A stretch of 64,000 nt of DNA, taken from assembly GCF_006345805.1 (NCBI RefSeq), contig NC_043001.1, positions 89,032,001 through 89,096,000 of the forward strand. The letters are read 5' to 3'. This DNA is from Octopus sinensis (taxonomy: Eukaryota). Numbering within the stretch: position 1 is the first letter of the stretch; each line of letters begins with the position of its first letter. The translations under genes and the position numbers were made by a program. Positions 6,606-52,314 of the stretch are shown here, one piece after another. The notes under the pieces are model-generated. The model was not told where the DNA came from and made no database searches. It was given only the letters and a program-made list of their open reading frames with translations.

Positions 6606-6645
6606 AATCTGTAAATATAATATGTGACAGTTATTCGGTAGCCAT

Positions 6646-6706
6646 GATAAAACTCTGAGTTTTGGATGTCGGGGCGGAAACCCACGCCGGCATCTCTTCA
6701 GCTATT
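6646..6706 (-). ncRNA. Decayed hammerhead (left-arm copy; GAAA mutated to AAAA)
   Basis: Minus strand aatag CTGAAGA gatgccggcgtgg-gttt-ccgccccgacatc c AAAA ctcagag t t ttatc. Confidence 0.65.
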
Positions 6707-6818
6707 GGGTCATCGGAAAAAATGCTATGAAAATAACCATTAAAGCAAAGGGAAATTACTGTGTGATTGACCGTTATTAGAATGACCGCTAAGTAAGGGG
6801 AGAGAGTATAGATGGCCC

Positions 6819-6879
6819 GATAACTGAAGAGATGCGGGCGTGGGTTTCCACCCCAACATCCGAAATTCGGAGTTTTATC
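6819..6879 (+). ncRNA. Type I hammerhead ribozyme; predicted GUU site at 6874
   Basis: GATAA | CTGAAGA | GATG..GTGG-gttt-CCAC..CATC c | GAAA | TTC-G-GAG | T T | TTATC: perfect 5-bp stem I and long stem II. Confidence 0.8.
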
Positions 6880-6996
6880 ATGGCTACCAAATAATTGTTA
6901 CATATATTTACAGATAAATTCTTCTATTTACATAATATTGAGGTCTCTTTCATTCTTTTGTTGTCTTGCCATTTCTATCAATATATATATATAAAG

Positions 6997-9155: not shown

Positions 9156-9285
9156 AAGTCTGTATATGTTTGTCTTTATGGCAAGCGAGTGCTATTAAAA
9201 ACAAGTTTGACATTAAACTGAAGATTTTTCCTTTTTTTTTTTTTTGTAGAGTGCGTATTTATCATGCTTTCAGAATAAAAATAGT

Positions 9286-9370
9286 GAAAGTAACTTCGAA
9301 GTTTCGGCCTGCTAACCTTCGTGAGACTGTCCGTCGAAGGCTAGCTGGCCGAAACTTCGAAGTGACTGTC
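9286..9370. ncRNA. 85-bp palindrome centred on 9328, composed of two overlapping back-to-back hammerhead-like motifs
   Basis: Plus strand: GACTGT | CCGTCGA a | GGCT-agct-GGCC | GAAA | CTTCGAAG T G | ACTGTC. Minus strand: GACAGT | CTCACGA a | GGTT-agca-GGCC | GAAA | CTTCGAAG T T | ACTTTC. Both first core segments deviate from CTGACGA. Confidence 0.65.
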
Positions 9371-11349
9371 AGCACTCTGTAAGTTCAGTTAGGCTTATTT
9401 ATGTATTCCTTGATTTTTCCATTTAAATATTTAGGGAAAATATCTATTGATATTCTAATCAAGAAAGTTCCATAACATTTTACACGTACCACCATTTGGT
9501 TTTTTTTGTGGCCGCGCCCTCATAAAACCGTCCTACAATTTAATAAGTCAAAACGAGTCAGCTCAACGTGCTAGAAATAGCAATCAAATCTCATTCGAAA
9601 CCCACTCTGCTACTTAAATAAGGAAATGATTTATTAGGTTTATCTTGGTAGCCCTAGATAAACAGTTTCTGAAATAAACGAATAAAAAAAGTGAGATGGT
9701 CACGGCTTGGATACTTTTGACCATACTTCTGCTCCATTACGATTGACTGGGAATTAAACAACGAGAACGAGTTATAATAAACTAAAATATCCTGTGAATA
9801 TTTCTTGTTAAAGAAACGGATTTTTGTAGAGCTTTCCATCTTAAAATAACAACAACCTCTAACACTTTTTTCTTAAATGCCATACCTACAAGGTTCCCTC
9901 TTATTTTTTCTCTGCGGGTATACGGAGAAATTTTTCGAGTATACAAATTTTGTCTTCCTTTGCAAATTTTGTTTGTGAACGATCATTCATACAAATAGAA
10001 AATTAAAATATTTGCTTTTTTTAAAAAAAATCAATTAAAATATTTTGATATTTGAGAAAAATATTTGATTTAGAATATTTGATTTAATCTTGAAAAAAAA
10101 AAAAAAAGAAAGAAAATGCGCACATATTTCTTTCTGAAACGTGTGTGCGCGCACAAACGCAAGTTTTCCGTTTGTTCGCAAGTTGTAAAGTGTGTGTATG
10201 CCCATACACAGTTTAGTGGTAACAATGCATACCAGTATGAATTACACAATAGAAAGTTTTTAAATCAACATAACTCGAATATATCTTTAGTATTTTGACA
10301 CACTAACTCTGAGCAAAGAACTGGAACGTGTCTCGCATGGCATTTTGTCAAACGCTCTAACGACTTTACCAATTCACCGCCTACTGGGTTTATTATATTT
10401 ATAGTAATCTAAGTAGTTGACTTTCTTTTGTTTTCTACCTATTATTAAATGTGAAAACTTATCTGGTCAACATCTACTCAGTGTATCTGTCTACACGGTT
10501 TGTAATATTGTTATATTGATGTTGCATGCATTTTGGTATGCATGCACGTGGTCTATACTATTTATGGTGACATGTTCGATATGGAGAAACAGTTCTTTTG
10601 TGTGTGTGTGTGTTTTCACACTCATATACATATCATCATCATTTAACGTCCATGTTCCATACTGACATGGGTTGGTCTGTTTGACACCATCTGATGGACT
10701 CAAGGACTGCATCATGCTCTTGTGTTTGCCCTGGCAGGGTTTCTATGACTGGGTACACTTCCTGATGCCAACTGCTTTACAGCATATGCCGAGTGCTTTT
10801 ATTTTTATACTACCTGCACTATTTTTAAAATGAAAAAAGACCTTGTACAGGGCTGATCCCAATGCTCTAAACAATGTATGAAGTTGCTCAAAAAGAAAGA
10901 ACTAGTCTGCATCACCTGGTGCAAACATAGTCTCAAGTGTTGCATCAGTGTTTTCCTTCTCCAAGACAGATGTCTAAGTAAAAACTAGAGGTCTGCCACT
11001 CACATCAAGCTATCATTGAAGTTTACTCCTTGATCATGTGTAAATACATGCAGACATTTGCTGTTGGATGGATGTTAACTCATCTAAGTTCATCTGCCTT
11101 TTGATTGGTTCTGTTTTATGTTCTGCAGGGTATCCAACAAAAACCATTCTCCTTATCAAACAGGTTGTACCAGTAGCTGTAAGAGTGATCTGACATATTC
11201 ATATATACAAAAGAAGTTTCAATTAAAAGTTCATTACAAATTTTCCTTGCTTGTTACTTATGCTTCATTCTGAAGTCATGTTCAACCCACCAAAATTTTG
11301 CCACACCCTATCAGTTGGGTGTGCACCTCACTTTGAGACATACTGGTCT

Positions 11350-25560: not shown

Positions 25561-28089
25561 AAAGAAAAGTATGATGGCTATATTTACACCTACTTTACAG
25601 TATTCAAAGCACATGACTCAGTGGCTAGAGTGTTGAGCTCACAATCATGAAGTAGTGAGTTCAATTCCTGGACTGAGCTGTGTGTTGTGTTTTTGAGCAA
25701 AACACTTTATTTCACATTGCTCCAGTTTCACTCAACTGTAGAAATGAGTTGCGACATCACTGATGCCAAGCTGTATTGGCCTTTGCTTTTCCCTTGGATA
25801 ACATCAGTGGCATGGAGAAAGGAGACTGGCTAATACAGCTTGGCACAAGTGATGTCGCAACTCACAAGTGATGTCGCAATGTATGTGTGTGTGTGTAATA
25901 CATTTTGTAAAAGAGACTGTCAAAGATGTTTGTGGATTGACAACATCAAAGAATGCATTGGAAACAAGAGCCTGGCAGATTGTATGCATGCAATACAACA
26001 CAGAGAGAAGGGGAGAGTCTTGGTAAGCTAACCCCTTGGACACATGGAGGGCATCTGGCTGGTACAGAGTTCAGTTCTATGTAGTGGCTTGCTAACCACT
26101 TTCTTCTGTCTTGTAGGGGTATTTACTCTATCTTCTAAGCTGTTTTCACAGCTGTTCTGCATTCAAGATTTACTTTATTTCCTGTAAAATACCAGCTTAC
26201 TTGGTGCTTTTAAGTTTGTTTATAAAAAGTGTTCTCACATATCGAAAGTTATCATTTAACATTATAAAAGATGGTATTCATTATCAGGGATCACTTACCT
26301 TAATGGTACAGAGTGCTCAGCTGGAATTTGAGAGGTACAGAGTTCAATTCTGTGTAGTGGCTTTCTGGCCACTTTCTTCCACCTTCTTAGGGTATTTACC
26401 TGATCTTCTAAGCTGTTTTCACAGCTATTCTGCATTTGAGATTTACTTTATTTTCTGTAATATATGTATGACCATCTCCTCCATTTTTCTTTTCAGCAAC
26501 TGCTGATGCAGCATAAAAATCACCTGTGCTGGCACCACATAAAAGGCATCTGTGCTGGTGCCACATAAAAAGCACCCAGTACTCTCTGTAAAGTAGTTGT
26601 TGTTAGGAAGGGCATCCGGCTGTAGAAAATGCATCAAAACAGACAACTAGAGCCTGGTGCAGCTCTCTGGCTTGTCAGCTCCTGTCAAACCATCTAACCC
26701 ATGCCAGCATGGAAAATGGACGTTAAATGATCATGACAATGATGGTGATGATAATGATGAGATGATTACTGTGCACTGTCAAGTTTGAAATGATGATTTG
26801 CATATTTATTTTTAATTTGTTCCAGCAGATTCAATGAAAATATGCTAGACCTATGTTTTACAGAAATAATAGATACATCTGTCTAATGATATCCATGAAA
26901 GTCGTAATAATGATTTGTGTATATGGTTTGATAAGATTGAATATAAATCTTTAAAACACTTCTGTACCCTCCAAAATCAATGGAATTGCTGAAAGAATTG
27001 TTACAAGTGTGAAAGGGGTTCAAAACCATACCCATAAAGTAACAATTCTATTAATGTATATTTAAGCCATAAAATTGTATTGAACTCAGGAAAATTTCTA
27101 AGTTCATCTGCTTTGATTGTTTGATTTACAGAATGTAATCACCAATAACTATATCATATGAAATTGCAGCTCTTGCTGGCATAATTGCAGAAGAAATGAT
27201 GAACAACAATGGCAATACCAAATGAAACTGCTGCTCTCTTTGGTATCACAAGAGAAATGATCATCTCAAGCAGGAAATAATACAGCTGTAATCCTTAAAG
27301 GTGAACAGAGCATATAAATGCATGTAAATCAACTATACAATAACATATATTGGTTTCAAATTTTGGGACAAAGGCAGCGATTTCGAGAGAGAGGACTAGT
27401 TGATTGAATTAACCCCAGTTCTTAACTGATACTTTATCAACCCTGAAAGAATTTGAACTTAGAACATAAAAATGAATGAAATCCTGCTAAGCATTTCACC
27501 CACTGTGCTAACAATTCTGCCACCTCACCGCCCTATGCAGTGATTTGTATATTGATAGTAAACAAAATGCTGAATCAGTCCCTCAAACTTTGAATGATAT
27601 TGCAAACTTAATTCATAAGGATGGGAATTAAAAGAAGAAGGTGATGATGGTGGTGGTGATGATGATTTTTGACAGCTGATACAAGAACAAAGGTTGTAAA
27701 TGATGTGAGACACAATCTATGAATAATGAAAGAAATAAAACTAATGCATTTTTCAGGATGCTATTAGATACTATGCTAAATCTTTTTGCATGATTGCACA
27801 TGATCGAAACTATTTAGAATGGCTTCTAGTTTGATGAAACAAATTGGCTATTCAGTTGAGGGAAAGGATTCCATGTGACCACAGCCATATTTCAATGAAC
27901 ACTCCACAATAACACATGCATAGACACACATGCATGCACACGTGTGTGCATGCACAAAAAAGCACACACACACACACACTTGCACAATAAGGTTTCTTAT
28001 TCACTTGGCACAAAAGTGTTTTATTTTGTTAGGGATGGCAATGATGAGCTGATAGAATTGATAAAATGTTATTAAAAAATATTATAATA

Positions 28090-28945: not shown

Positions 28946-30987
28946 CCTACTATTTGTGGTACGAGGGAACTGTAATGCAGAGAATAAAATACAGTTCACC
29001 CACCTCTCGTTGGCTGTCCAGCTGTGTTAAGCCCAAACATGTGTCCTATCCATCTTACCTAATGTTAGCAGCTGCTACTACCAATCCCTGCTAGCTTGCT
29101 CCACTCACATCCATTTACCACGACTGACCTAGACTGAAAAAGGATGACCCTAGTCTTGCTTCCCTCACTTCTTGTCTCCCACTTCCTGTTCCAGTGGAGC
29201 CCCTTGAGTGTTGACATCACAGCCCTTTCCCTTCCGGTTCATCTCATCCCCATACATCCCCCACCTGATCTCAAAGATCACCTCCTCACTTCACTCTATG
29301 TAATCTTCCATCTTCCGCTCTTGCCCTCTCTAGGCTCTCCTGCATCATTGCCACCATCCCCTCTCCCACTTTGTCTCCCCAGTTTGTCCTGTCTGCTCAT
29401 CTCTTGATGTAGCTGCATGTTGTTCATAGCCTCCCTGCAGAAGAGAGAGAGGGCCTGCCTTTGTGCAGGTTGGGGGGGGGGTGAAGTTTGGGTCAAGCCC
29501 CTGAAGGCATGCTGCACATCTCAGTGGAACAGAGGAACAGTGACAGTGGTTAATTCCAAAAATATTGTTTCTGTGGATGGAATACCATGTCATGTCTTGG
29601 ATGTTCACAGAATTGTCACTTCATCGGACAATGAAGGTGGAGGAGATGAAGAGAATAAGGCCCCCTCCCCGCAGAGATTAGAGTGTGTGAGGCATCCACT
29701 TGGGTGATGGCAGATTTTGACATGGAGTGAACTGAGGAGGTGATCTTTGAGATCAGGGGTGGGGGAATGAGATGAAACAGAAGGAAAGGACTGTGATGTC
29801 AACAGTCAAGGGGCCCTTTCCTTCCAGTTCATCTCATCCCCACACACTCACTGATCTCAAAGATCACCTTACTTCACTCCATGTCGAAATCTGCCATCCA
29901 CTCAGGTGGATGCCTCACGTGCTGTGATCTTCACAGGGAAGGAGCCTTGTTCTCTTCAGCATTGGGGTTCCCCTTTTCAATGCTACTCTACCATCCACTG
30001 CTGACCATCACACACCAGCAGAAAATCTTTGTCCTCAATGGTGTAAGCAGTACAATCCCTCGTGGAGCTTGTTCCACTTGTGTCTCTTCACTACAACTGC
30101 TGCAGGCCAAAGGTGGATGACCCTGGTCTTGCTTCTCTCACTTCCTCTCTCCCCCTTCCTGATCCTGTGGGGCCCCTTGACTGCTGATGTCACAGCCCTT
30201 TCCTTCTGGTTCATCTCATCTGGAGATGGTGAAAACACAGATATACCAATTGAACGAAGAGGACACCAAATTATTGTTACAACCAACCACATATTTGTTA
30301 TTGGTCGATTTAACCCAACCTACTCAGGGTTGTTTAATGAGGTATGGTCCTTTAACATATCAACAAACTTATGGACAAAGTTTAAAACAACAGGTCCGGC
30401 ACTAACGCAGGTTGCTTCTCATTCAATGTGTCTTCTTGGAAACAACATATTTGTGTTTGGTAGATCAGGCCTGTCATTTGGCATGAACAGTGGCAATGCT
30501 ATTTATCAACTCGATCTTCTCAAGCCAACCATCATTAAATGGTGATGCTGCAAATTTCCCTTCAAAGAAATATGGGCATACTATGCATCGAACTGACAAT
30601 TACAAATACATCTGTGGTGGTACATGAATCTTACCATCTTGAACTTAGCACAAAATCTTGGGAATATATTGAATGTAAAAACCCACCAGAACCAAGACAT
30701 TGGCATGGAATTGTAATGCGGGGAATAAAATATGGTTTACCTACCTCTCATTGTTGGCTGTCCAGCTGTGTTAAGTCCAAACACATGCCCTACCTGTCTC
30801 ACCTAGTATTAGCCGTTGCTACTACCAATCCCTGCTAGCTTGCTCTACTCACATCCATTCACCATGACTGCCCCAGGCTGAAAGAGGGCGACCCTAGTCT
30901 TGCTTCCCTCACTTCCTATCTCCCCCTTCCTGTTCCGGTGGAGCTCCTTGACTGTTGACATCACAGCCCTTTCCTTCCAGTTCATCA
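28946..30987. mobile_element. Composite ~2-kb insertion with ~275-bp direct repeats (28971-29245 and 30712-30987, both starting TGTAATGC), extra partial and inverted copies, and the kelch fragment; interrupts a SINE
   Basis: The SINE is split between ...aaaatacagtaccag (28945) and gtgctggggtcgat... (30988). A partial direct copy lies at ~30110-30218 and an inverted pair at ~29655-29790 / 29813-29958. Confidence 0.7.
30219..30711 (+). pseudogene. KLHDC10: Kelch-repeat gene fragment resembling KLHDC10/slim, frameshifted
   Basis: PIERRGHQI...IFVIGRFNP..LFNEVWSFNISTNLW...VASHSMCLLGNNIFVFGRSGLSFGMNSGNAIYQLDL, then shifted frames PSKKYGHTM..YICGG and YHLELSTKSW...PEPRHWHGI. This follows the kelch 1-4 order of KLHDC10 as I recall it (GGYNP, ASMSLVLHGNNLLVFGGTGIPFG, YGQ, PEERYRHE). 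Confidence 0.75.
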
Positions 30988-31437
30988 GTGCTGGGGTCGA
31001 TGGTATTGACTAATATCCACCCTTCAAATTTGTTGGCCTTGTGCCTAAATTAGAAATCATTTTGTTAGGAGTGGGAATGGGAAAACAGGAAGTTGGTTTA
31101 TTCATCATATCTTTACCATAGGCATTAACAAGGTAAGTGATGCAGTCTAAATCTGCAAATGAAACTGTGCTGTCATGAACCTACCACCTATTCTACTGTA
31201 TCACCCCCACTTTCCATTTACACAGAAGATACAAGCTGTCGAATTACTGAACAGTCAACAAAAGGTTTTTTTGTTTAAGGAGTGGTTTATCAGGTATTTA
31301 TAGAGTGTGACCTACATAGTTTTAACTTTGGAATAATTTAATCAAAATGTATGAGAGAAAAAATACTGAAGAATCTTTGTAAAAAGTCATGAGTTACCAA
31401 CATTTGTGCTTACCTCATTCATACACATTCTTCTACT

Positions 31438-31470
<33 letters not shown>

Positions 31471-31506
31471 TACATGCATTATAAATGTCTATATAGATAT
31501 TATAAA

Positions 31507-31542
<36 letters not shown>

Positions 31543-31545
<3 letters not shown>

Positions 31546-31826
31546 TTCACTGAGTTTACATATATACAGATACGAAGTCCAGGCAAATATCACCAGCCGA
31601 CCGGTGTCTGCTACTCTAGGCCGATGAAGGACAATGATCCTGAAACACGGTGTCCCTAGATGCGGTTCCAGCGGTTGGGGGTGTTTGTCTCCCCTTCGTA
31701 TATGTATATAAGGACACAGGGAAAAAATGTGTCGAAGCTGTCAGGAAGCGTTCGATGCCTCCTAGGGCTATACAACGGTGGTGTACCCCCTACTGTCACG
31801 TTCTTGTTAGATTGACAGTATACAAC

Positions 31827-31831
<5 letters not shown>
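31543..31831 (+). mobile_element. ~290-bp structured, CpG-retaining non-coding element with a hammerhead ribozyme, inserted in (TA)n (retrozyme-like)
   Basis: Bounded by pure (TA)n on both sides, has no meaningful ORF, and contains an HHR plus several hairpins. Confidence 0.75.
31615..31660 (+). ncRNA. Type I hammerhead ribozyme (U4C core variant); predicted cleavage after C31654 (GUC)
   Basis: TCTAGG | CCGATGA | AGGA-caatga-TCCT | GAAA | CAC-G-GTG | T C | CCTAGA: perfect 6-bp stem I, 4-bp stem II, near-palindromic stem III. Confidence 0.85.
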
Positions 31832-31880
<49 letters not shown>

Positions 31881-32247
31881 ATAGATAGATAGATAGACAG
31901 AGAGAGAGAGAGTTGCCTCTGTGTGTCTGCTCTTTTATTTAGAAACTACAAAATGACCATCCACAAAACCATATCTTCTATCTTTTACTTGTTTCAGGCT
32001 TTGGAATATGGCCATGCTGGGGCACCACGTTGAAGGGGTTTAGTTAAACAAATTGATCCAACACTTAATTTTAAGTCTGTTGCTTATTCTATCAGTCTAT
32101 TTTTGCTGACATATAAACAAACCAATACCAATTGTCAAGTAGTGGTGGGGGACAAATACACACACACACATATATGTATGTATGTGTGTGTGTGAATGTA
32201 TGTATATATATGTATGTATGTATGTATGTGTGTATATATATATATAT

Positions 32248-32299
<52 letters not shown>

Positions 32300-32753
32300 G
32301 TATATCAAAAGGATGTGTTATAATACTATTCCACAGCTATACCAACAATTCAACATATCTCCATCATCAGCTGCCCCACGGATATCATTATGGTTTTGAC
32401 ACCTGGGCAGTACCATTTAATCTGGCAGTGTCAACAGCACTAAAATAAGTGTTGTTTGGGAACTAAGAAACCAAAGAAACCACAACTTCAAACACATTTA
32501 CCCAATGTACAACTGTATCAATAAATAAATTCCATAAGTAAATTACAACCCCTCTAAATATGTAACTAAACAGTGACAATTCTATGAAGTCATAAAAAAT
32601 TACATTTATGAATGTATGTATATATATATATGTGTGTGTGTGTGTAAGTATGTGTATGCATATGTAGGTGTATGCATATGTAGGTGAAATAAAACGAGAC
32701 AACAAAGCCAAGGCAGTCTGAAAGTTCTAGGATATTTTATAAAGAAAAGGGTA

Positions 32754-32801
32754 GTCTTACAGCTGTTTCAGGGATATAAAAGATATCCCATCATCAGAAA
32801 T
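32754..32801 (-). ncRNA. Minimal type I hammerhead ribozyme (left-arm copy)
   Basis: Minus strand attt | CTGATGA | tGGGATATcttttATATCCCt | GAAA | CAGCTGT A | agac; core and stems II/III are identical to the right arm. Confidence 0.83.
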
Positions 32802-32977
32802 GATATGAGAGAGTTAAATAGAAGGAAATAGTAGAGTTCAATATAAGAAGTTATTTTGGAGAGGGAGAGATATTGGAGATATAAAGGGAAATATTTATAT
32901 TTCCTACATCTCTCCCTCTCCAAAATAACTTTTTATATTGAACTCTACTATTTCTTTCTATTCAACTCTCTCATATC

Positions 32978-33025
32978 GTCTCTGATGATGGGATATCTTT
33001 TATATCCCTGAAACAGCTGTAAAAC
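32978..33025 (+). ncRNA. Minimal type I hammerhead ribozyme; predicted GUA site at 33021
   Basis: gtct | CTGATGA | t GGGATAT-ctttt-ATATCCC t | GAAA | CAGCTG T A | aaac: canonical core and palindromic stem III ACAGCTGT. Confidence 0.85.
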
Positions 33026-33769
33026 TACCCCTCTCTTTATAAAATGTCCTAAAACTTTTGCATTGCTTTGGCTTTGTTGTCTCATTTTAGTTAACCTATA
33101 CATGCTCACACATGGCCTGCATTTGACTCATCACCAGTGGCAGCTCATAGATAAAATTAGTTGAGATGCTGCTTCAGAAAATGTTTAGCTGTTGTTTTAG
33201 TAGGAAACAAACATATAGGAAGAAAGTTTATACATAAATTTGATCGATTCGCATTTTAGCCGCTGCCGAGTAGTGTGTTTAATTTATTCACTGAACACCA
33301 CCACAAATTCGCCCTCCTTTTTCAAAAATCCCCCTTTGCCCCCCACAAATGACAAAATAAAGGAGGGGGGAATGTGCCTTAGTTTTCAAATCCTGGCAGC
33401 AGGATAATAATCTAATTCTACACTTTATTACATTCAAGAATATAAACACATTTTTAAGCACAACACACGTGTAGTCAAAAAGAAACACTAACTTTCACCA
33501 GAACACAAAGGTCGGCACTGTCATTCATGCACTGCTCTCTCTTCCTAGTGTGAAGCTTCCTATCTTGGACATGTGAGCATGCACACAACAGCCAACACTG
33601 TCGCTGGAACTGAAGTGCATGGTTCTATACAAGGATATTTGTATTTTTTTCATAAACTAGGGGATGGCTACTGACATTAAGCTTAAGGATTATATAATGT
33701 ACAAGTATAAAGAAAGAATTAAAGAAAAAAGGACTCATAATATTGAATGTTATCGATAATATCAAGTGG

Positions 33770-34320
33770 AAATAGGGTGTGCTGCAGTTCCGCAGTGCCT
33801 ATACACAAGCTGCCACTGCTCCTCACTCACACTATTATCGAACCAGGAGTTTAACAGTGTTCTTTCCAAAGCACTTACATAGCCTTTTGAATCTTATGGA
33901 TACCAACCTCTCCATCTGGCTCATTCCCCTGCTCTCACCCATGCTGCCACACTTGCTCCTACCTCTCCAACACCACCATCCTCACAGGAACCCATCATCA
34001 TCCCTATCATATCACTGACTCCTTTACCTGCACTTCTAGCAACATCATTTACTGCATCTCCTGCTCTGTCTGCCCTACTCTGTACATCAGTCAAACAGGA
34101 GGCTGCTTGGCTGACCAGTTCATGGAGCACCTCTGAGACATTAGACTCAGCAATGACACCCCAGTCTTGTAACATTTCTACTCTACCAGTCATTCATTAT
34201 AACACTTGTCTGTGTTCAGATTGTCTTTGCATAGGGGCCATCCGGACTCCTACCTTCTCTAAGAACAGAAATTAATCTTCTCTCTTCACTCCTTTGTGCC
34301 ACATGGGGGAAACCCCCCTC
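33770..34320 (+). mobile_element. Degraded Penelope-like GIY-YIG endonuclease remnant
   Basis: Plus-strand translation near 34000-34150: HPYHITDSFTCTSSNIIYCISCSVCPTLYISQTGGCLADQFMEHL*DIR, matching the FTC.S.N..Y...C..C...YIGQT...L..R..EH pattern. Confidence 0.75.
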
Positions 34321-35656
34321 CCCTCTTCATCTGACACCTACTTCTCTTTACTCCTACCCACCTCTCCTCTCTTGTCTTGACACCTACTTCCTCTCTTCAC
34401 TCCTACCCACCTTCTCTCTTCATTCATACCCCCTCCATCTACCCCCACATACCCCATCCTCCACCCCCACAAGACAAAGACAAAGAATCCACAACTGAGG
34501 GAGGAGTAGTATTGAGAGAAGTGGCTTTGTGCCAGTAACCAAAAGGGAAACTTCTATGGGGTAGCTCAACTTGCTAAAAATAGCTGCCAACTCACATACA
34601 AATCACACCTTACTGTTTTATGTTTGTATTAGCCAATGTGGGGACCACTACATAACCGTTAGACTTGCTAGTAGTAGTAGTAGCCAAATCTCTCAAATTA
34701 CACCCTACTTCTCTTTTGCATAAAAGTTGTGCAACTCTGTTCTTAGTAACACTATTTCTGATGAGGCCTATACACCTTTTCCTCTTCACGATTCTTTTAT
34801 TTTTCACTTTTCTGTCTTTGTATTTTGGTATTTCTTGACACAGTGCAAAGGTCATGTCAAAACATGAACCATAGAATAACATAAGATTCTGTCACCTGTC
34901 ACTCCCGACTAAATGTTTGAACAAATAATAAAAAAAAAAACCGGCCAGGGTACTGCAGGAGTTATTTCCCTTGCAACGTTTTTACCGTGCAAGACTGCTG
35001 TATGTATTTACCTATATATTATCTAACAACAACTTTGGTTATGATTATTAATTCAATACCTCTATCACTTTTCAACATGCTTATAAAATATATAAAAAGA
35101 ACAGAGCTGCGCACCTGATTCTCAGAAATATTTTTTCAAGCTCAGAATTATTAAACCGTGGAATAAACTACCCACACCAGTAAGCTGTCTGGACAATGCA
35201 TCCTTCAAAAATTCCATGGTTCTTGAAAGTTACCAACACTATTTCTGATGTGCCTATGCACCTTTTCTTCTTCTTCACGATTCTTTTACAGTTCACTTTT
35301 CTGTCTTTGTAGTTTGGTATGTCTACTGGGCATGTACTTTTAACTACCATTGCTGTCTTTCTTTGACTTATTGCTGCTTTCTAAACCCCTTTTTTACCTT
35401 TTTCCAACCAGTTGTGATGCATCTGAGCACTGTATACAATAAGCTCAATCATTATCATTATTATAATTATTATTAAGGCGGCAAACTGGCAGAATCGTTA
35501 GTACACCGGGCAAAATGCTTAACATCATTTTGTCTCACCTTATGCTTTGAGTTCAAATTCCACCAAGGTAGACTTTGCCTTTCATCCTTTTGGGGTCAAT
35601 GTCATCAACTAACCTCCCCCAAAGTTTCAAGCTTTGTGCCTATTGCAGAAAGGATT

Positions 35657-37675: not shown

Positions 37676-39457
37676 GATCTACCTATATACATACATACAT
37701 ACACAATCTGAAAGTTAAGGAGAGGAACGTAAGCACTTATAATTAGTTCGATGAAACAACAAATTTCAATCGATCAAATTCTCCTTTATTTTTAAAAATA
37801 GGATCATATTTGAAGCTCCAAAATGTTAGGAAGCATTTACAGTCAAAATGAGATGTTTACAACTAGAATTGACCAAATGAAGCTCAGGCAAAAAATGACC
37901 AAATGAATATCTCAGACCTGTCACATGGGCCTGTTCAAACAGAGCTAACAGATCATTTTTCAACATTCTCCTGGCAATGTCTCATAAAGACAAAAACTAT
38001 TAAATGTGTTTACATGCCTGCTTTGTTAAGTCTCGTTAATATCTTGATATTCTAAAAGACTTTAGTCGTAGATCCTTCCACTCTTTGTGAAACATCAGAA
38101 AACAAATGGTCCCTATCCAGTACAATTATAAGCTTTATTATGAACCTTCTCCTAGGTCAGGCCCAAATCTGCCAGGTCTGCTTCACCTCCTCTCTGTTTT
38201 TCAATCAAGAGAGGCTCTCTCTGGTCTCTGGAATGTATAACATATAGCTGAGCATCTTCCTGTCTCACAACAATGGTATCCTGTAGGTTACTCAGCCTGG
38301 CCTTTTCCTGACTTCTACTATCATGATGTGGGTTCATGCTGAGGAATTCAGTTTGGTCCTAAGGCAATGTCTGTGCAAGCCATCTGCAGTTCTAAATTCT
38401 GCAGATCTTTTTTTATTTCTCCCAGACATAGTTCAGCATGAAGGTAAATATATTCAGATGGAGATTGGTGCCTTGATTAGTGAAGGAGTTGGACAATACA
38501 GGCTTCAGGCACTGGAAGAAAGCCCACAGCTTTGTTGAGTCTCTTCTCCTCATCACTTTATGAGTTTCATCATTTGTAATGATACTTCCCTAGCTTTAAG
38601 TATTATCACTAGATGTTACCAAGAAATATAATTGCTGTGGAGTGCAGGTCTTCTTGAGTACAGCAAGGCACCGGGCATCTTGGTCCTTTGTCATCTCGCC
38701 TGAAAGGTACAGTATCCTCAGGTTGTTCTTCAGTACTTTATTCCATGTCTTCTTGGGTCTCCCACTTCCACAGGTTCTATTTACTTTGAAATCTGCACTT
38801 CTTTGTGGAGCTGTCAGCATCCATCTGCAATATTAAATATGTAAAGATTAAAACCAGGTAGCAAGGTCCAAAATATTTATGTAAACAAAACTGAATGTTA
38901 CAGTGATGTTACAGAGTTGATGGAACCAAACTTTAAATTTCTATTTATTTTTTCATCAAACTTACCATTTTGTAGGATTACTACTGGTATTTTGGTTTTC
39001 CTTCAAATCTGTTAGTTTCTGTCAGGCATCTTCATCAAATTAGCTTGGCAGATTATTTCTCCTTTTCTGCATAATATATACCACCATGACTGACCAGGCT
39101 ATCAGATATTGTTACACATCGCTGGTCACAATGCGCTTCACATTGTTTTAGCCTTCAAATGACGCCACCCCGCTGGCTAAGCGAGCAGGCAAACAGAAGA
39201 AAGAGTGAGAGAAAGTTGTGATGAAAGAGTACAGCAGGGATTGCCACTACCCCCTGGAGCTTTAGCTGTTTTCACTCAATAAACACTCACAATGCCTGGT
39301 CTGTCAATCGAAACCATGATCCTATGACTGCGAGTCCGCTGCCCTAACCACTGGGCCATTCAAGTCCATATATATATATATATATATAAAAAAGGAAATG
39401 AAGAAAATGCTGACAAATAATTGAAGTAATTTAAGTAATTTAATTAGGTGAAAGTTC

Positions 39458-39495
39458 TTTTTACCGGTTGCGCATTTGTTATGCTTATCAAAATA
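39458..39495 (-). ncRNA. Mirror copy of the variant hammerhead motif in the Penelope left arm
   Basis: ttaccggttgcgcatttgttatgcttatcaaaat is the exact reverse complement of the right-arm motif. Confidence 0.5.
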
Positions 39496-40211
39496 TAAAA
39501 GAGAGATTAGAGTCTGTCTCTTATATGTGAAAAAAAGGCTCCAGAGTTGTTTTGGATTTGCTTGGTTTCGCGCCTAAAATTTTGATCGGTCATTATGAAG
39601 GGGTCACGTGAATGTTTGAATGGAAGTTGGTGTTGGGGTAAGAAAAAGGCTCCAGAGAAGTTAAAATTTGGCTAGTGTCCCGCCTAAAATTTCTTATTGG
39701 CCATAATAAAGAGGTCACGTGAATGTTTAGAATTTTCGAAAATAGTGTTGTTGAAAATTCTTATTGTTCAGGCTGGTCAGTAGACGTCATGTGGATATTT
39801 TAAATAGCTTTTTAGCGCGTAGTTAGGGAGTGTATTTTCCGCTTGACTGGATAAGTAAGTTCGTTTAGAACAGGGAGAGCTGTATGTATGTATGTGTGTG
39901 CGCGCGCGCGCGCGTGTGTGTGTTTATATGTATGTTGGGGCGCGCGCGCGTGTATATATGTGTATGTGTGTGGGTACAATTTTCAATATTTATAGTTCTG
40001 CTGGCCTTGTGCCTGTATCGGGAAGCAACGTATTTGTGTGAAGTCAATATTTACAGCCATTTCCAAAAAATAGTGTTGGATGTTTTGCACCCGTATTCAA
40101 TTATGTGTATGTGTGGAACCATATATTTGTGTGTGTGTCATGGTGTTAATATCTGGGTAAAGGTGTGTGTAGGGTGTGTGCAGGTGTAAGTGTGTTTGTT
40201 GTGGGTTCGTG

Positions 40212-41754
40212 TTAGGGGCATGTGTTTAGAAGTGGTCTGTATTTATTAATAAGGTGGGATTCCATGGTTATTCGCTGGGTATGAGTGGCATTGTCTTTAA
40301 ATTTGTAGAGGGGAAAGATTCTAAAATTGGGATGGAGTTGTGCGGCACAGGTATCAATATGTGCACTAAATGCTATTTTTCTATATTCTTCCTGTATTTT
40401 TATTTGGGATCTGTGGACAGTCATGCGTTGGCGGAGGCTATTTTTTGTTTGGCCTATGTAGTGTTCATTACAGCCCGAGCAAGTTAAGACATATACTAGG
40501 TTTTCTGATGCGCATGTGAAGTTGTGTTTTACTGTGAAACGTTGTCCTTGTTTAAAAAGGAATTCCGGACCTTCTATTAGGTTGATGCATATACCACAGT
40601 TGGGTCTATTGCATTTGTTTACTGTGGGTTTAGTTGTGGTTGGCAGTACTTTGGCATTTGTTAGGATGGTTTTCAATGATTTGGGTTGCCTTTTGCTCTT
40701 TATGATTTCGTGTGTTAGGAGGATTTGGTTCATTCTATGGTCCTTTTGTAATACAGGAATGTTCTGGAGGATGGTGTCAAAAGCTTCATTGTTGAGGGGG
40801 TTGTGTGTAGAGATGTATGGTAGAGTATGGGGTTTCGATGTAACAGGTTTAGGGCGTCTAAGTTCCTGCGTGCTGAGTTTTAGGGCGCGTTGGATCCCAT
40901 TGTCAATTAGTGACGTGGGGTAATCCCTGCTTGTTAATGTGCCCTTGAGTTCTTGTAGACGTAAGAGACGGGTGTTTTTATTGGAGACTATAGTGCAAAT
41001 TCTCTTGGCTAAGTTGTAGGGAATGTTATTTTAACGTGTCTAGGGTGGCATGAATTGAAAGGGAGGTATTGCTTGGAGTCTGTGGGCTTGTAGTATATGT
41101 CTGTTTCTATTTTTTTGTTGTGAATTTTAATGAGGATGTCGAGGAAGGGAATTTGTTGAGGGCTGTATTCCATTGTGAAAATAATGTTTGTGTTGAGCCC
41201 ATTTATAAGAGTGTGAAATTCGTTAAGCTTCTCGACGGTTTCGGGCCAAAGGATGAAGCAGTCATCAAGATATCTCTTCCAGTTCTTCTCTATGTGTGTG
41301 TGGAGAGTGGTGCCAAATTGGTTAAGAACGTTATTATAGAGGGTGATTTCCAGGTATCCCATGACTAAGTTGGCGTAAGTGGGAGCTGTTTTCGTTCCCA
41401 TTGCCGTCCCTGATTTCTGTCTGTAGAATTTGTTGTTGAAGGTGAAGAAATTATTCTCTAAGATGAATTTGAGTCCTTCTAAAATAAATTCCTTTTTGAT
41501 GCGGTGTGGGAGTTCGTTGGAGTAATTATCCAGCCAGAATTGGATAGCTTCTATTCCTAGGTTGTGGGGGATGTTGGAGTAAAGATTGACTACATCGAAT
41601 GTTACTAGCAGGGTTTGTTCAGCAAGAAGTGTATTGGGGAGGTGGTTGAGCATATCTAGATCGTCCCTTATGTAGCTTTTAATGTGTTTGAGGAACGGCT
41701 TGAGAAGGGTATCAATGAAGTTGCTAAGGCGGTGGGTTTCGCAAGCGGGACCTG
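40212..41754 (-). pseudogene. Penelope-like RT plus GIY-YIG ORF, 5'-truncated at the inversion junction, with one apparent frameshift near 41030
   Basis: The RT frame (ORF 41009-42097, genuine part from ~41754) shifts at RHVK to NNIPYNLAKRICTIVS... and runs into the GIY-YIG ORF 40212-40733, stopping at 40212. Confidence 0.88.
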
Positions 41755-42397
41755 GCCCTAAACCTGTTACATCGAAACCCCATACTCTACCATACATCTC
41801 TACACACAACCCCCTCAACAATGAAGCTTTTGACACCATCCTCCAGAACATTCCTGTATTACAAAAGGACCATAGAATGAACCAAATCCTCCTAACACAC
41901 GAAATCATAAAGAGCAAAAGGCAACCCAAATCATTGAAAACCATCCTAACAAATGCCAAAGTACTGCCAACCACAACAACTAAACCCACAGTAAACAAAT
42001 GCAATAGACCCAACTGTGGTATATGCATCAACCTAATAGAAGGTCCGGAATTCCTTTTTAAACAAGGACAACGTTTCACAGTAAAACACAACTTCACATG
42101 CGCATCAGAAAACCTAGTATATGTCTTAACTTGCTCGGGCTGTAATGAACACTACATAGGCCAAACAAAAAATAGCCTCCGCCAACGCATGACTGTCCAC
42201 AGATCCCAAATAAAAATACAGGAATATAGAAAAATAGCATTTAGTGCACATATTGATACCTGTGCCGCACAACTCCATCCCAATTTTAGAATCTTCCCCT
42301 CTACAAATTTAAAGACAATGCCACTCATACCCAGCGAATAACCATGGAATCCCACCTTATTAATAAATACAGACCACTTCTAAACACATGCCCCTAA
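41755..42397 (+). pseudogene. Second, inverted copy of the Penelope linker plus GIY-YIG domain
   Basis: ORF 41682-42341 repeats PKPVTSKPHTLPYISTHNP...CNRPNCGIC...HYIGQT; a 1-bp frameshift lies near 42297. Confidence 0.85.
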
Positions 42398-43112
42398 CAC
42401 GAACCCACAACAACACACTTACACCTGCACACACCCTACACACACCTTTACCCAGATATTACACCATGACACACACACAAATATATGGTTCCACACATAC
42501 ACATAATTGAATACGGGTGCAAAACATCCAACACTATTTTTTGGAAATGGCTGTAAATATTGACTTCACACAAATACGTTGCTTCCCGATACAGGCACAA
42601 GGCCAGCAGAACTATAAATATTGAAAATTGTACCCACACATACACATATACACACGCGCACGCGCCGCCCCAACATACATATAAACACACACACGCGCGC
42701 GCGCGCGCACACACATACATACTACAGCTCTCCCTGTTCTAAACGAACTTACTTATCCAGTCAAGCGGAAAATACACTCCCTAACTACGCGCTAAAAAGC
42801 TATTTAAAATATCCACATGACGTCTACTGACCAGCCTGAACAATAAGAATTTTCAACAACACTATTTTCGAAAATTCTAAACATTCACGTGACCTCTTTA
42901 TTATGGCCAATAAGAAATTTTAGGCGGGACACTAGCCAATTTTAACTTCTCTGGAGCCTTTTTTCTTACCCCAACACCAACTTCCATTCAAACATTCACG
43001 TGACCCCTTCATAATGACCAATCAAATTTTAGGCGCGAAACCAAGCAAATCCAAAACAACTCTGGAGCCTCTTTTTTTCACATATAAGAGACAGACTCTA
43101 ATCTCTCTTTTA

Positions 43113-43150
43113 TATTTTGATAAGCATAACAAATGCGCAACCGGTAAAAA
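43113..43150 (+). ncRNA. Variant minimal hammerhead motif at the 3' end of the Penelope right arm
   Basis: TTGATAA (U3/A8 replacing C3/G8), GCAT-aacaa-ATGC stem II, GCAA instead of GAAA, palindromic ACCGGT stem III, GUA site; stem I is weak. It lies about 75 bp from the arm end. Confidence 0.5.
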
Positions 43151-43255
43151 GAACTTTCACCTAATTAAATTACTTAAATTACTTCAATTATTTGTCAGCA
43201 TTTTCTTCATTTCCTTTTTTATATATCACCACTCGTGTTCGACATCTCCTTTTTT

Positions 43256-43300
<45 letters not shown>

Positions 43301-43614
43301 TTATGTATATAGTTATAATTCAAGTTTAGATTTAAATTTAAAATTTAAACTGTGCTTTGGGTATGTCCCTAGTAGTATGCCAGCAGAGCACATTCACTGC
43401 ATATGGCTACCTGGTGTTGTCCACAGTAATTGCACAATCATTGCTGGATCTACATTAGGAATTTCTCTGTGTACATTGGGTTTAGTAGAAACAATTGATA
43501 CGGAAGATAGAGTATAGTGGAAACTTTATTTATCACAATGATCATGCTGGATGTGTCAAAATGATTGTTGTGATAAAGTTTCCAATATACTCTATCCTCC
43601 GTATCAACTGTTTC

Positions 43615-43654
<40 letters not shown>

Positions 43655-48711: not shown

Positions 48712-50484
48712 CTATACAGCTGATTCTCTGCCGTATGCATAGCTTACCACTGAGTAAAGAGAGGTCTGGGAGCCCAAGTTGGAATTGAAGTCTTTCTGAG
48801 AGTAAGGAGGAGTTTCTTGGGTTAAACTGGACGGGTTCTGAACCATTGAGTTAAAATAGTTCCTAACATTGAAACTTCGGTCTGACTCATTCAAGGACCC
48901 AATATCGAGATCCTGAAATGCTCTTCGTTTCTCAGATTTTTCCAAATGACTGCTATCTTCTGCAGATCGGTTGCACAGCCAATTTGGGCCATTTTTTTTA
49001 CAAACACACTTCCAGAGAACTATTAAAGCCATGAAAACAACAACTGCAAAAATACTGCAACTTATTGCAATGATTAATACCGTATTAGAATCTGGTTTGT
49101 TCTTCAACTCGACATCACACTTGGAAATCTCTTCATCTGTAAGCTGTTTAATGCGGCGCTCATGTAGACCTAATGGAATCTCACACTGAAGAAAATCACA
49201 CCCATCAGATTGATACTGATTTGAGCACTGTAACGTTCGAGAATATGTTGGATTCTGTAACCAGTTACGGAATCCTCTTATATGACAGTCACACACCCAA
49301 GAGTTCCTATCAACTTTTATCCATTTTAAATTGGAAAATATACGCAAAGTTGATTCTGGGATATTTTTGAGATTATTAGCAGAAAGATCTAATTTCTGAA
49401 GGCTTCTGGGTCCTTCAAATTGGTTCAAACTGTTTATTGAACAGTCAGAGAGATTCAGTTCTCGCAACCGATATAACTCTGTAAAAGCATTAACTGGAAG
49501 TTTTTGGAGAGGATTTCCAGATAAGCTTAAATATTCAAGCTGGGGTGCCATTGGATGCAAAGAGCCACTGTCTAAATGGTCAATTGAGTTCAGTGATAAA
49601 TCTAAATGTTTAGTGTTGAAGTATTTAAAAGTCTCATCAAAGATCTGTCGAAGATTATTCCGAGACAAGTTCAAAGTATCAAGGTTGATACCAGAAAACT
49701 GGTTCTCTTCTAGTTTATAAATGGTATTATTGTACAAAGAAAGAGTCCTCAAATTTGGAAGACTGCGAAGGATATTCAGCATGAGAGGTTTGGTCAGTCC
49801 GTTACTTGACAAGTCCAAGCTTATTAAATTACGAGTAATTGTGAACAGATCCGTTGCTATTGAAAACAACTGACAGTTACTAAGTGATAAATGCAGCAAA
49901 CTGCGCAACCACTGAAAACTGTAGCTGTAAATATTCTGCATGTTATTCCCATCAAGGATCAAAGTGTTCAGCTTACCTTGAGACTTAAAAATACCACTCG
50001 GGAGAGAATAAACCTGGTTCCACGACAAGTCAAGAAACTCTAATTTATGTAAGGTGTAAAAAATATCATCAATATTTGCAATCAAGTTGTGAGACAGATC
50101 TAAATGAATTAGGTTCGAGAGTCCTTCAAAGGCTTTGTTGTCTACATTGGTGATATCATTGTGTGTCAATGAAAGATACTGTAAGTTCACCATGCCTTGG
50201 AATGTTGTCTCAGAAAGTTGAGAAATGTAATACTTTGTTACAGTTAAGTTATTGAGTTGACTGAAGGATTCAGTACGAGAAAAGCTTTGCTTCAGATCAC
50301 CACGCATCTTACTGCCCTGTAGTGTCAGCTGCTGTGTAGATTTCGGCACTTTTGCAACTGTGTTTTGTAATGACCCACTCTGGCACACCACCACAGTGCC
50401 AGAGCAGCTGCAGGAAGTGGGACAGCCATTTGTATATGTCAGAAACACAATGAAGAATAAATAGTATGATAGAGATTTGATCAT
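48712..50484 (-). CDS. Leucine-rich-repeat single-pass transmembrane protein (signal peptide, LRRNT, roughly 14 LRRs, LRRCT, TM, cytoplasmic tail with C-terminal ESAV); CDS in one exon, 590 aa
   Basis: Uninterrupted ORF. A pyrimidine tract and AG acceptor (minus strand ...ttttgttttattttctAG|aaac, exon starts 50495) precede the ATG at 50484. MIKSLSYYLFFIVFLTYTNG is signal-peptide-like; CPTSCSC is LRRNT; repeated LxxLxLSxNxI/L units follow; NSWVCDCHI..F..WL is LRRCT; VLIIAISCSIFAVVVFMALIVLW is the TM segment. No Ig, FN3 or TIR domain is visible. Confidence 0.93.
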   Translation of the reverse strand: MIKSLSYYLFFIVFLTYTNGCPTSCSCSGTVVVCQSGSLQNTVAKVPKSTQQLTLQGSKMRGDLKQSFSRTESFSQLNNLTVTKYYISQLSETTFQGMVNLQYLSLTHNDITNVDNKAFEGLSNLIHLDLSHNLIANIDDIFYTLHKLEFLDLSWNQVYSLPSGIFKSQGKLNTLILDGNNMQNIYSYSFQWLRSLLHLSLSNCQLFSIATDLFTITRNLISLDLSSNGLTKPLMLNILRSLPNLRTLSLYNNTIYKLEENQFSGINLDTLNLSRNNLRQIFDETFKYFNTKHLDLSLNSIDHLDSGSLHPMAPQLEYLSLSGNPLQKLPVNAFTELYRLRELNLSDCSINSLNQFEGPRSLQKLDLSANNLKNIPESTLRIFSNLKWIKVDRNSWVCDCHIRGFRNWLQNPTYSRTLQCSNQYQSDGCDFLQCEIPLGLHERRIKQLTDEEISKCDVELKNKPDSNTVLIIAISCSIFAVVVFMALIVLWKCVCKKNGPNWLCNRSAEDSSHLEKSEKRRAFQDLDIGSLNESDRSFNVRNYFNSMVQNPSSLTQETPPYSQKDFNSNLGSQTSLYSVVSYAYGRESAV

Positions 50485-52314
50485 CACCCAAGTTTCTAGA
50501 AAATAAAACAAAAAACAGTATTAAGACCTGAATTTATTATTTTTTATTATAAATCTATTATATTAATTAATAAATTAGTTCTTAACAGTGGCTATTAATA
50601 AATGATTACAGATTACCATTTATGTGTAAATACTATAAGAGTTTCACATATGTAATACAATGACTTGAAAACCAGATTATCAAAGTAATTAGTAGATAAA
50701 ATCTCCTCGAAGATGTGCTTAAAATCTAAAAATCAAAAGCTCAGCAAACAAGGGAAATAACTGCAGGAAGATCAGTTGATTGCTATGTTTCAACAGAGTT
50801 GGCAAGAGAGACTTAACTGGATTTTGGCTTTTGAAACAAATTAACAGAAGTAACAGACATGTTTTTGATCTTATTAGATCTTGCTCTGCTGAAGACGTCT
50901 TTGACCAGTTAGCTTTAATGGTCAGTTCCACTCCAGACAATATTATCTATCATTGTCAAGAAGACATAGAAAGGAGATGATTATTAGGCAGAGGAAGATA
51001 ATGAGAAATGGAAGTGGTTTTGGGCAGGGAAGAAAGGTTACTGAGAAAGCCAGTGGGTGGAGGGATGTAGTATGTACTTATTCTGTTCTCAGATGATAAA
51101 AAAGTGATGAGTGTTAAGAGATGAAACATGGGGTGAAAAGGCTGATGGGGCAGAGAGGATGGAGTTGGGGTAGAGCCCATCTCAGATAAGCATTATCAAG
51201 GTAGTTTTAGGATATCAATTCTGCTGTGGTAAGTGAATCTTCTTGAGTACAAAAAAGTGCCAAATATCTCAGTCCTTTGTCATCTCTTTCGTAAGACTCA
51301 GCAACTTGAGATTGGCCTTCAATACTTCACGTGCACACACACATATATAAACAGAGAGGAAGAGAGGGGGAAGTCAGAGAGAGGATATGTTAGAAGAGTC
51401 TTAATTTATGGAAAAGAAATTGGGGAAGGAGAATGTTAAAAAATATGTGCCTACCATAATTCACTGGGTCCCATACGTCCTACATAACAATTGAGTCTCA
51501 ATATTGTTTATCTACTTAGTGATTCTTGCATCGTTATTCTAACTTGCACAGTGAAGTCTATGCTTTGCTGAGAAGGTCTAATAAAATTAAAACAAATCAA
51601 GAGTTGTGCCCCATACTTGCTTAGTAATTAAAACATTTGTCACTGAGTTAATGTTGATTTTTTTTCTCACCACATAAGTATTCTAATTGGATTGTTGATG
51701 CTACATTTACTTATGAATTAGCAATTGTTTTTCAAACAGAAATACAAGCATGGCTGTGTGTTCAAGCAGTTTGCTTTCCAATCGTGTGGGAAAATACTAG
51801 CGTCTAACATTATTATCATCATTCTTGCATGAGTTAGACAGAATTTTTTGACATAGGTTTTGTATGGCTGGATGCTCTTCCTATTGTCAACCCTCACCAG
51901 TTTCTAAGCAAAGTAATATTTACCCATGATCAGACATGTTTTCATGGAAGATAGAAAACAAATGATGTACATTTACAACCACCATGATATGCTGCAAGGA
52001 GAAACACTGGTACAAACACATTATATGTGTTTGTTTGTGTATATGGTTGTGTGTGTGTGTGTGTGTGGAAGAGTATGGCCTTAGTGGTTAGGATGTTGCA
52101 CTCATGATCATAAGATTATGGTTTTGATTCCTGAACCAAGCAATGCATTCTGTTTGTGAGCAATCCTGTGACAGTCTGGCATCCCATCCAGGAGGAATAT
52201 ATATGCCACAGAATCCGGAAAATCACCCTTATGAGCTTATGGCTTGGGAAAGATCTTGGATTCTTTTTTGTTTTGTTTCTTTGTCATTTTGATACATACA
52301 CTCAAATGTGTACG

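Follow-up and report, generated by a model that had tools for sequence, protein, structure and literature searches.

A 444-bp octopus palindrome with two decayed hammerhead motifs, very probably the joined, truncated ends of a single Penelope-like insertion

How does a short palindrome come to carry two hammerhead ribozyme motifs, one in each arm, on opposite strands and facing outward? Such a palindrome lies near the middle of the window, a 64-kb stretch of Octopus sinensis DNA. A sequence-only reading had placed it at 32680..33097 with a length of ~420 bp; it is real and, by measurement, slightly wider (444 bp). Very probably it consists of two 5'-truncated repeat ends joined head to head, with decayed and likely inactive hammerheads, left by a single insertion of a Penelope-like element (PLE), probably of Neptune type. 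The coordinates of the palindrome, its flanks and related elements are collected in Table 1.

Table 1. Features of the palindrome, its flanks and related elements in the window.
Feature	Position	Strand	Description
Inverted repeat	arms 32668-32885 / 32894-33111		218 nt each, 89% complementary, 8-nt spacer, 444 bp in total
Left arm	32668..32893	-	5'-truncated, PLE-like repeat end, reading outward; 8-nt spacer 32886-32893 counted in
Right arm	32894..33111	+	second 5'-truncated copy, head to head with the left arm
Type I minimal hammerhead motif	32978..33025	+	C3 at 32982; predicted cut after A33021 (GUA)
Parts of the + motif	32990-33008; 33010-33013; 33013-33020	+	7-bp stem II; GAAA; palindromic stem III
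Mirror hammerhead motif	32754..32801	-	C3 at 32797; predicted cut after 32758
One-sided extension	33112..33134	+	family sequence, resembling a PLE 'tail'; missing from the left arm
hAT-like MITE insert	33135..33818	.	684 bp, 11-bp terminal inverted repeats
Linking stretch	33827..33917	+	possibly a decayed PLE ORF start
Neptune-type Zn-finger-like linker and GIY-YIG endonuclease remnant	33918..34313	+	decayed, several stops
Second hammerhead foldback	6607-6915		arms 11.4% different, 96-nt spacer, (TA)n flanks
Very short foldback	9285-9371		deviant hammerhead-like core cut by the centre; second arm found by eye
Young Neptune-type PLE	39382-43226		RT, Zn-finger-like linker and GIY-YIG, frameshifted; head-to-head inverted copy
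Foldbacks without hammerhead motif in the scans	29647-29958, 43483-43619, 25745-25864		16%, 8.5% and 15% different

An ungapped alignment of the two arms shows 25 differences in 218 sites (20 transitions and 5 transversions), corresponding to a Kimura distance of 0.127. With the spacer included, the left arm is ~8 nt longer at its 5' end; its AC-rich outer end abuts a (TG)n/(TA)n tract at 32610-32667. Both arms are regarded as 5'-truncated because many contigs of the repeat family align through 32893/32894, with more family sequence behind. With 25 differences between the arms, and with the family-majority letter preserved now in one arm and now in the other, the palindrome should be no assembly artefact. 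Selection preserving the hairpin was considered and rejected, the 20:5 excess of transitions being no different from the 116:52 seen at variable sites of the family (P=0.35). Self-BLAST gave no copy of the arm in the window besides its inverted partner. The locus holds no tandem array and hence no head-to-tail arrangement, and a reading as tandem retrozyme was discarded.

The hammerhead core (CUGANGA, GAAA, UH) is exact in both arms, as had been read from the sequence. The ~40 nt said to be identical between the arms came to 42 nt without any difference (32981-33022 / 32757-32798), comprising CTGATGA, the 7-bp stem II, GAAA, the palindrome ACAGCTGT and an A at H17 in each motif (A33021 on the + strand, 32758 on the - strand). 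Scattered substitutions do occur in the outer parts of the arms, where they had been placed, but are found elsewhere as well, six in the inner 84 nt and three in stem I. The stem I letters were confirmed, the right arm having 5' GTCT and 3' AAAC and the left arm 5' ATTT and 3' AGAC; each motif thus keeps three of four pairs, one of those on the - strand being G-U. The U opposite U at the base of stem II was also found in both arms. Helix II is closed by a G-C pair after one extra 5' nucleotide, an arrangement known from the literature, but with a further U before G12. Minimal PLE hammerheads have been described with a helix II of 7-8 bp, a helix I of 4-5 bp and a palindromic helix III (Cervera and De la Pena 2014; PMC4209133). 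Helix II falls within this range in both arms (7 bp), and helix I does so with the family-majority letters, single arms keeping only their three pairs. Stem III is an 8-nt palindrome allowing dimer formation, with a predicted self-duplex energy of -11.1 kcal/mol.

A strict motif (exact core, stem II of at least 7 bp, palindrome of at least 8 nt) was absent from all of 10 block shuffles of the window, and a relaxed motif had 6 occurrences in the window, compared with 0-4 in each shuffle. Rfam returned no match at gathering score over the whole window and 111 matches up to E=10 for 31400-33400, with no hammerhead family among them. Matches to miRNA precursors, lying far below gathering score, were set aside as generic similarity between long hairpins. 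Two pattern scans of JGI metagenome contigs gave no match.

The repeat family was sampled by aligning contigs of four public runs, out of 24 listed, to 32400-33400 at 80% likeness. Three of the runs are DNA-like and labelled as three different organisms; the fourth (X16) is guessed to be RNA. In the DNA-like runs 2811, 2510 and 3519 contigs aligned, and 401 in X16, totals that include two flanking repeat families. The summed depth per hammerhead bin, which is no copy number, was 1.7e4-4.9e4 in the DNA-like runs versus 25-55 for the listed long contigs of run X1. The arm is a member of a very common, high-copy repeat family, which by a rough estimate may number of the order of a thousand copies. 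Since the RNA label of X16 is only a guess, its family contigs are of no use as evidence of expression.

Family letters were read from 40 of 220 variant rows and from loose-end consensus rows. From the complementary damage in the two arms an ancestral GTCT/AGAC stem I had been proposed, and the family bears this out. At 32799 the majority letter is G in all four runs (0.93, 0.94, 0.79 and 0.96 of the summed depth), at 32801 it is C (0.62, 0.66, 0.62 and 0.88), and AGAC stands 3' of the cut site in two loose-end consensus rows; GTCT/AGAC is therefore the family state. The lower share of C at 32801 may be due to its position in a CpG. At 32790, the letter by which stem II would be closed with A-U makes up ~51-52% of the depth in the three DNA-like runs, so the U-U at this place is a common variant of the family, carried by both arms. 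In X16 the stem II base is A in 84% of the depth.

Whether the hammerhead is more conserved than the rest of the arm had been put forward as a test, and here the result is borderline. The core shows no difference at 40 sites versus 25 at 178 sites elsewhere (P=0.0045), and P=0.01-0.02 after trimming of the low-complexity end and merging of a cluster. Against the inner arm, however, P rises to 0.09; with stem I included the core has 3 differences in 48 sites (P=0.15), and a permutation of the longest run gave P=0.08. Such an excess would be expected if both cores were under selection, cutting RNAs made outward from a central promoter, and pooling with the sister foldback at 6607-6915 still leaves P=0.043. 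That both stems I are broken speaks against selection, and so does the sister foldback itself, in which the right arm has a canonical core but the left arm has lost G12, the core having decayed like its surroundings (6 of 51 sites versus 8 of 57 outside, no core excess). Moreover, single minimal PLE hammerheads are reported not to cleave in vitro, and dimers to do so weakly (PMC4209133). Selection on the cores is accordingly very improbable, and the extra conservation could be due to chance or to conversion between the arms.

As the motifs lie on opposite strands, no single RNA holds both as ribozymes. The predicted cost of the hammerhead fold is ~72 kcal/mol within the whole foldback on either strand, versus 10.3 and 9.2 kcal/mol in the isolated arms and 5.0 with the majority stem I, values in which tertiary contacts are ignored so that only their ranking counts. 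Read-through transcription always yields the complementary arm before the ribozyme, which is predicted to be buried in a long hairpin. The ribozymes at this locus are likely silent now.

A palindrome of this size might itself be a mobile, non-autonomous unit, comparable to a MITE or foldback element and spreading as a whole. One paralogous contig with nearly the same centre was indeed found in two runs (X1 record 5, X2 record 20; 53 differences, 5 gaps). Depth drops ~tenfold at the centre, however, partly as alignments break there, and family sequence runs on past both the centre (behind 32893) and the right end. Fold points of other copies were taken from 15 of 82 joints and 12 of 17 between-letter rows. 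Three occurred in two runs each (32860>32933, 32835/32948 and 32933/32967) and, among the joints listed, others in one run each (32798>32978, 32737>33068 and 32732>33068), the last two lying 3' of the hammerhead. The family copies thus share no fixed palindromic unit, and a unit spreading whole has very little probability. Because other copies fold at other points, the palindrome is a by-product of insertion and no fixed element. No contig bridging the locus itself was present among those listed.

The flanks bear on how the by-product arose. Between the predicted cut site and the end of the left arm lie 90 nt. On the right side only, family sequence continues for at least ~30 nt, being interrupted by the hAT-like insert and resuming at ~33827-33833; the loose-end consensus behind 33112 (X1, X16) resembles 33112-33134 joined to 33827-33833 in a comparison by eye. 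We take the insert to be hAT-like from its 8-bp target duplication (33127-33134 / 33819-33826, one mismatch); at its first position, 33135, family contigs begin whose flanks are unrelated. Over the part examined, this MITE is itself high-copy in the aligned runs. Inverted 5'-truncated copies and one-sided tails of 30-40 bp are given as hallmarks of PLEs by Craig et al. (2021; PMC8557442). The palindrome has an inverted 5'-truncated copy at its 5' end, with family sequence beyond 32893 and the motifs outward, an extension of this kind at one end only, and a microsatellite target at its left end, all as in PLEs with an endonuclease (EN+).

Alternatively, a single copy of a PLE end could have been inverted by snap-back of the cDNA or by later hairpin-type DNA repair, one arm being copied from the other. 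This would agree with the spacer of only 8 nt and with the rare letters that both arms have in common, namely four substitutions (32724/33055, 32749/33030, 32861/32918 and 32683/33096, the last pair read at 33096 only) where 76-99% of the family in the three DNA-like runs has another letter, and an apparent 1-nt insertion at 32735/33044. Rare letters in both arms imply the same source copy, or mutual conversion. Snap-back predicts that one arm lies inside the other, but here the left arm reaches further at 5' and the right arm at 3', so that neither contains the other. The same split is present in the young Neptune-type PLE, with 3 differences in the 1463 columns of its arm alignment: one arm, extending 899 nt further at 5', stops 80 nt after the putative cut, and the other (right) arm has ~30 more nt before its (TA)n. 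In both polarisable cases, therefore, the 5'-longer arm has no tail, and snap-back fails unless later deletions mimicked this asymmetry. Host flank is not duplicated either. Inversion of a single copy is thus improbable, if less so than selection or a mobile unit.

For the two-copy insertion, the steps may be pictured as follows. The endonuclease of the element would nick both strands of an AT- or microsatellite-rich target, and from each nick element RNA would be reverse-transcribed, beginning downstream of the hammerhead. For one copy this start would lie ~90 nt past the cut site, for the other further 3', which would account for the extension on one side. Both cDNAs would break off early, and their truncated ends would then be fused. 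The parent's hammerhead could act as a dimer held by the palindromic stem III, or be aided by protein. Later the arms would have drifted, mostly by transitions and with arm-to-arm conversion perhaps playing some part, and the extension would have received a hAT-like element. Double nicking and priming as the source of the inverted copies is suggested by analogy with the Anolis Poseidon PLE protein PAc, which nicks both target strands and extends each of them (Frangieh et al. 2024; PMC11167929). [quoted passage not shown] That paper makes no claim that extension of both strands yields inverted copies.

The parent element had been expected to be a PLE. An origin from such elements is well supported, but no intact parent ORF is tied to the hammerhead family. 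Downstream of the extension lies the endonuclease remnant, with a linker motif CxxxxCxxC and with no RT found in 33918..34313. It matches the endonuclease of the window's own PLE (tblastn E=7e-9). Phmmer gave 3352 relatives (best E=5.8e-30); six of 150 hits were scanned with Pfam, of which three long ones carry RVT_1 together with a GIY-YIG match slightly below the cut-off, and tblastn of relatives back to the remnant gave E ~1e-37. Pfam assigned no family to the remnant itself. A stretch of an Octopus bimaculoides Ig-domain gene model (P0002 residues 108-181), 71% identical to the remnant over 75 residues, is probably a PLE copy mistaken for an exon. Were the 84 nt between the extension and the linker a decayed ORF start, palindrome and remnant would form one internally deleted element. 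Of 150 tblastn queries, the N-terminus of P0024 matched here at E=0.016. No significant match to a PLE ORF start behind the extension came from a profile built on 10 N-termini, and a frameshift-tolerant scan ranked the place 72nd of 127,846 (a shorter block 181st of 127,870), the box having been picked after the data were seen. By adjacency and common orientation, remnant and palindrome may belong together. As the G+C content of the remnant is higher (46% versus 33%) and no second arm copy was found downstream of it, the remnant may instead be a separate insertion and no part of the palindrome's element.

LTR pairs serve as insertion clocks, being two copies from one insertion that then diverge. 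The sequence-only reading had taken the palindrome arms in the same way, as identical at insertion and dating the event by their divergence. Near-identity at birth is plausible, backed by the young PLE and by the shared rare letters. The arms differ by 11.5% (95% interval 7.6-16.5%), which gives a rough age, but an imprecise one, uneven along the arm (6 of 84 sites in the inner part versus 16 of 86 in the outer part, P=0.04). The two arms also depart from an LTR pair in that they likely derive from two priming events, are inverted, lie 8 nt apart and are mutually convertible. As conversion between arms is open to a palindrome, 11.5% is probably a minimum age; it is well established that large palindromes of mammals undergo such conversion (PMC8981503, PMC3723533). 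Listed variant rows and loose ends allowed 16 differences out of 25 to be polarised, 6 to the left and 10 to the right arm (P=0.45). Shared changes went 4 to 0 towards G/C rather than A/T, and private changes 3 to 6 (P=0.07) or 4 to 10 (P=0.02), a hint of GC-biased conversion between the arms drawn from a biased subset of rows.

Seven foldbacks of the window were measured from the self-BLAST, leaving out microsatellite and SINE-pair rows. Four of the seven have paired, outward-facing hammerhead-like motifs, and arm differences in the six short ones range from 8.5 to 16.4%. The motifs of the young PLE (+43117, -39491) are hammerhead-like, with a U3-A8 core variant and one further deviation in the core; the very short foldback at 9285-9371 has a 10-nt palindromic stem III. 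In the second hammerhead foldback the right arm runs ~60 nt further before its (TA)n. A solo hammerhead-like motif with a CCGATGA core and a perfect 6-bp stem I was noted at 31613-31662 (+), between two (TA)n tracts and enclosed by a weak inverted match (31561-31599 / 31672-31710). An 88-nt direct repeat (34748-34835 / 35235-35324, 87% alike) has CTGATGA in its first copy, GAAA being missing at the expected distance. Broken kelch-like frames, recognised by eye, at 29928-30838 (+) overlap the foldback at 29647-29958 and are possibly a retrocopy. A 602-codon frame at 48712-50520 (-) has multiple leucine-rich repeats (Pfam LRR_8, E=1.8e-49) and likely a transmembrane segment; it lies ~15.6 kb from the palindrome, with no link seen.

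Short head-to-head foldbacks might more generally be fossils of double priming, each made by one PLE complex acting on both strands with two RT start sites, a proposal we regard as tentative and rather doubtful. If it were true, four of seven foldbacks per 64 kb would translate into the order of 100,000 units per octopus genome, which would offer a genome-wide test of how inverted copies are made, built-in clocks for PLE bursts, limited by conversion between inverted arms, and abundant long double-stranded RNA on which editing or silencing could act. Should the split asymmetry hold genome-wide, it would link the extension of both strands by a PLE in vitro to the still unexplained inverted copies in genomes. 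The locus itself matters little. Motif type, opposite-strand pairs and inverted truncated copies are known already, and the palindrome is an ordinary decayed transposon end. What it adds is a hammerhead family missed by Rfam, with an intact stem I that is readable from two arms and confirmed by family copies. A literature search, with subscription papers, supplements and repeat databases mostly beyond its reach, returned no octopus hammerhead family and no mechanism of PLE inversion; the family may already be catalogued elsewhere. In the giant squid genome, 235 hammerhead-1 loci have been reported (PMC6962438).

Compared with known systems, the motifs resemble the hammerheads in the pseudo-LTRs of PLEs (PMC4209133) in their full core, 7-bp helix II, 4-bp helix I and palindromic helix III. 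As with the elements described there, truncated copies are dispersed and dual motifs lie on opposite strands; pairs of this kind are known in Schistosoma at 100-700 bp, and here the C3 positions are 185 bp apart. Unlike the hammerheads of that description, which have one extra 5' nucleotide before G10.1-C11.1, the octopus motif has a U on both sides of the helix II G-C, and no Rfam hammerhead model matches it. With the EN+ PLEs of the Neptune clade (PMC8557442) the locus shares the inverted 5'-truncated copy at the 5' end, the one-sided extension and the microsatellite target, and the adjacent remnant shares the CX2-5CxxC linker before GIY-YIG. It differs from them in having no RT or full ORF and in the shortness of both arms. 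PAc (PMC11167929) is similar in that the copy ends in AC-rich sequence, here 90 nt past the cut, and in the optional tail; it belongs to another clade, and its ORF begins at stem II, where no such frame was identified in the octopus sequence. Like the non-LTR retrozymes (bioRxiv 10.64898/2026.07.22.740005), finally, the arms are non-coding, PLE-related and equipped with a type I hammerhead; retrozymes are arranged head to tail with two hammerheads per RNA, whereas the palindrome is head to head with its hammerheads on opposite strands.
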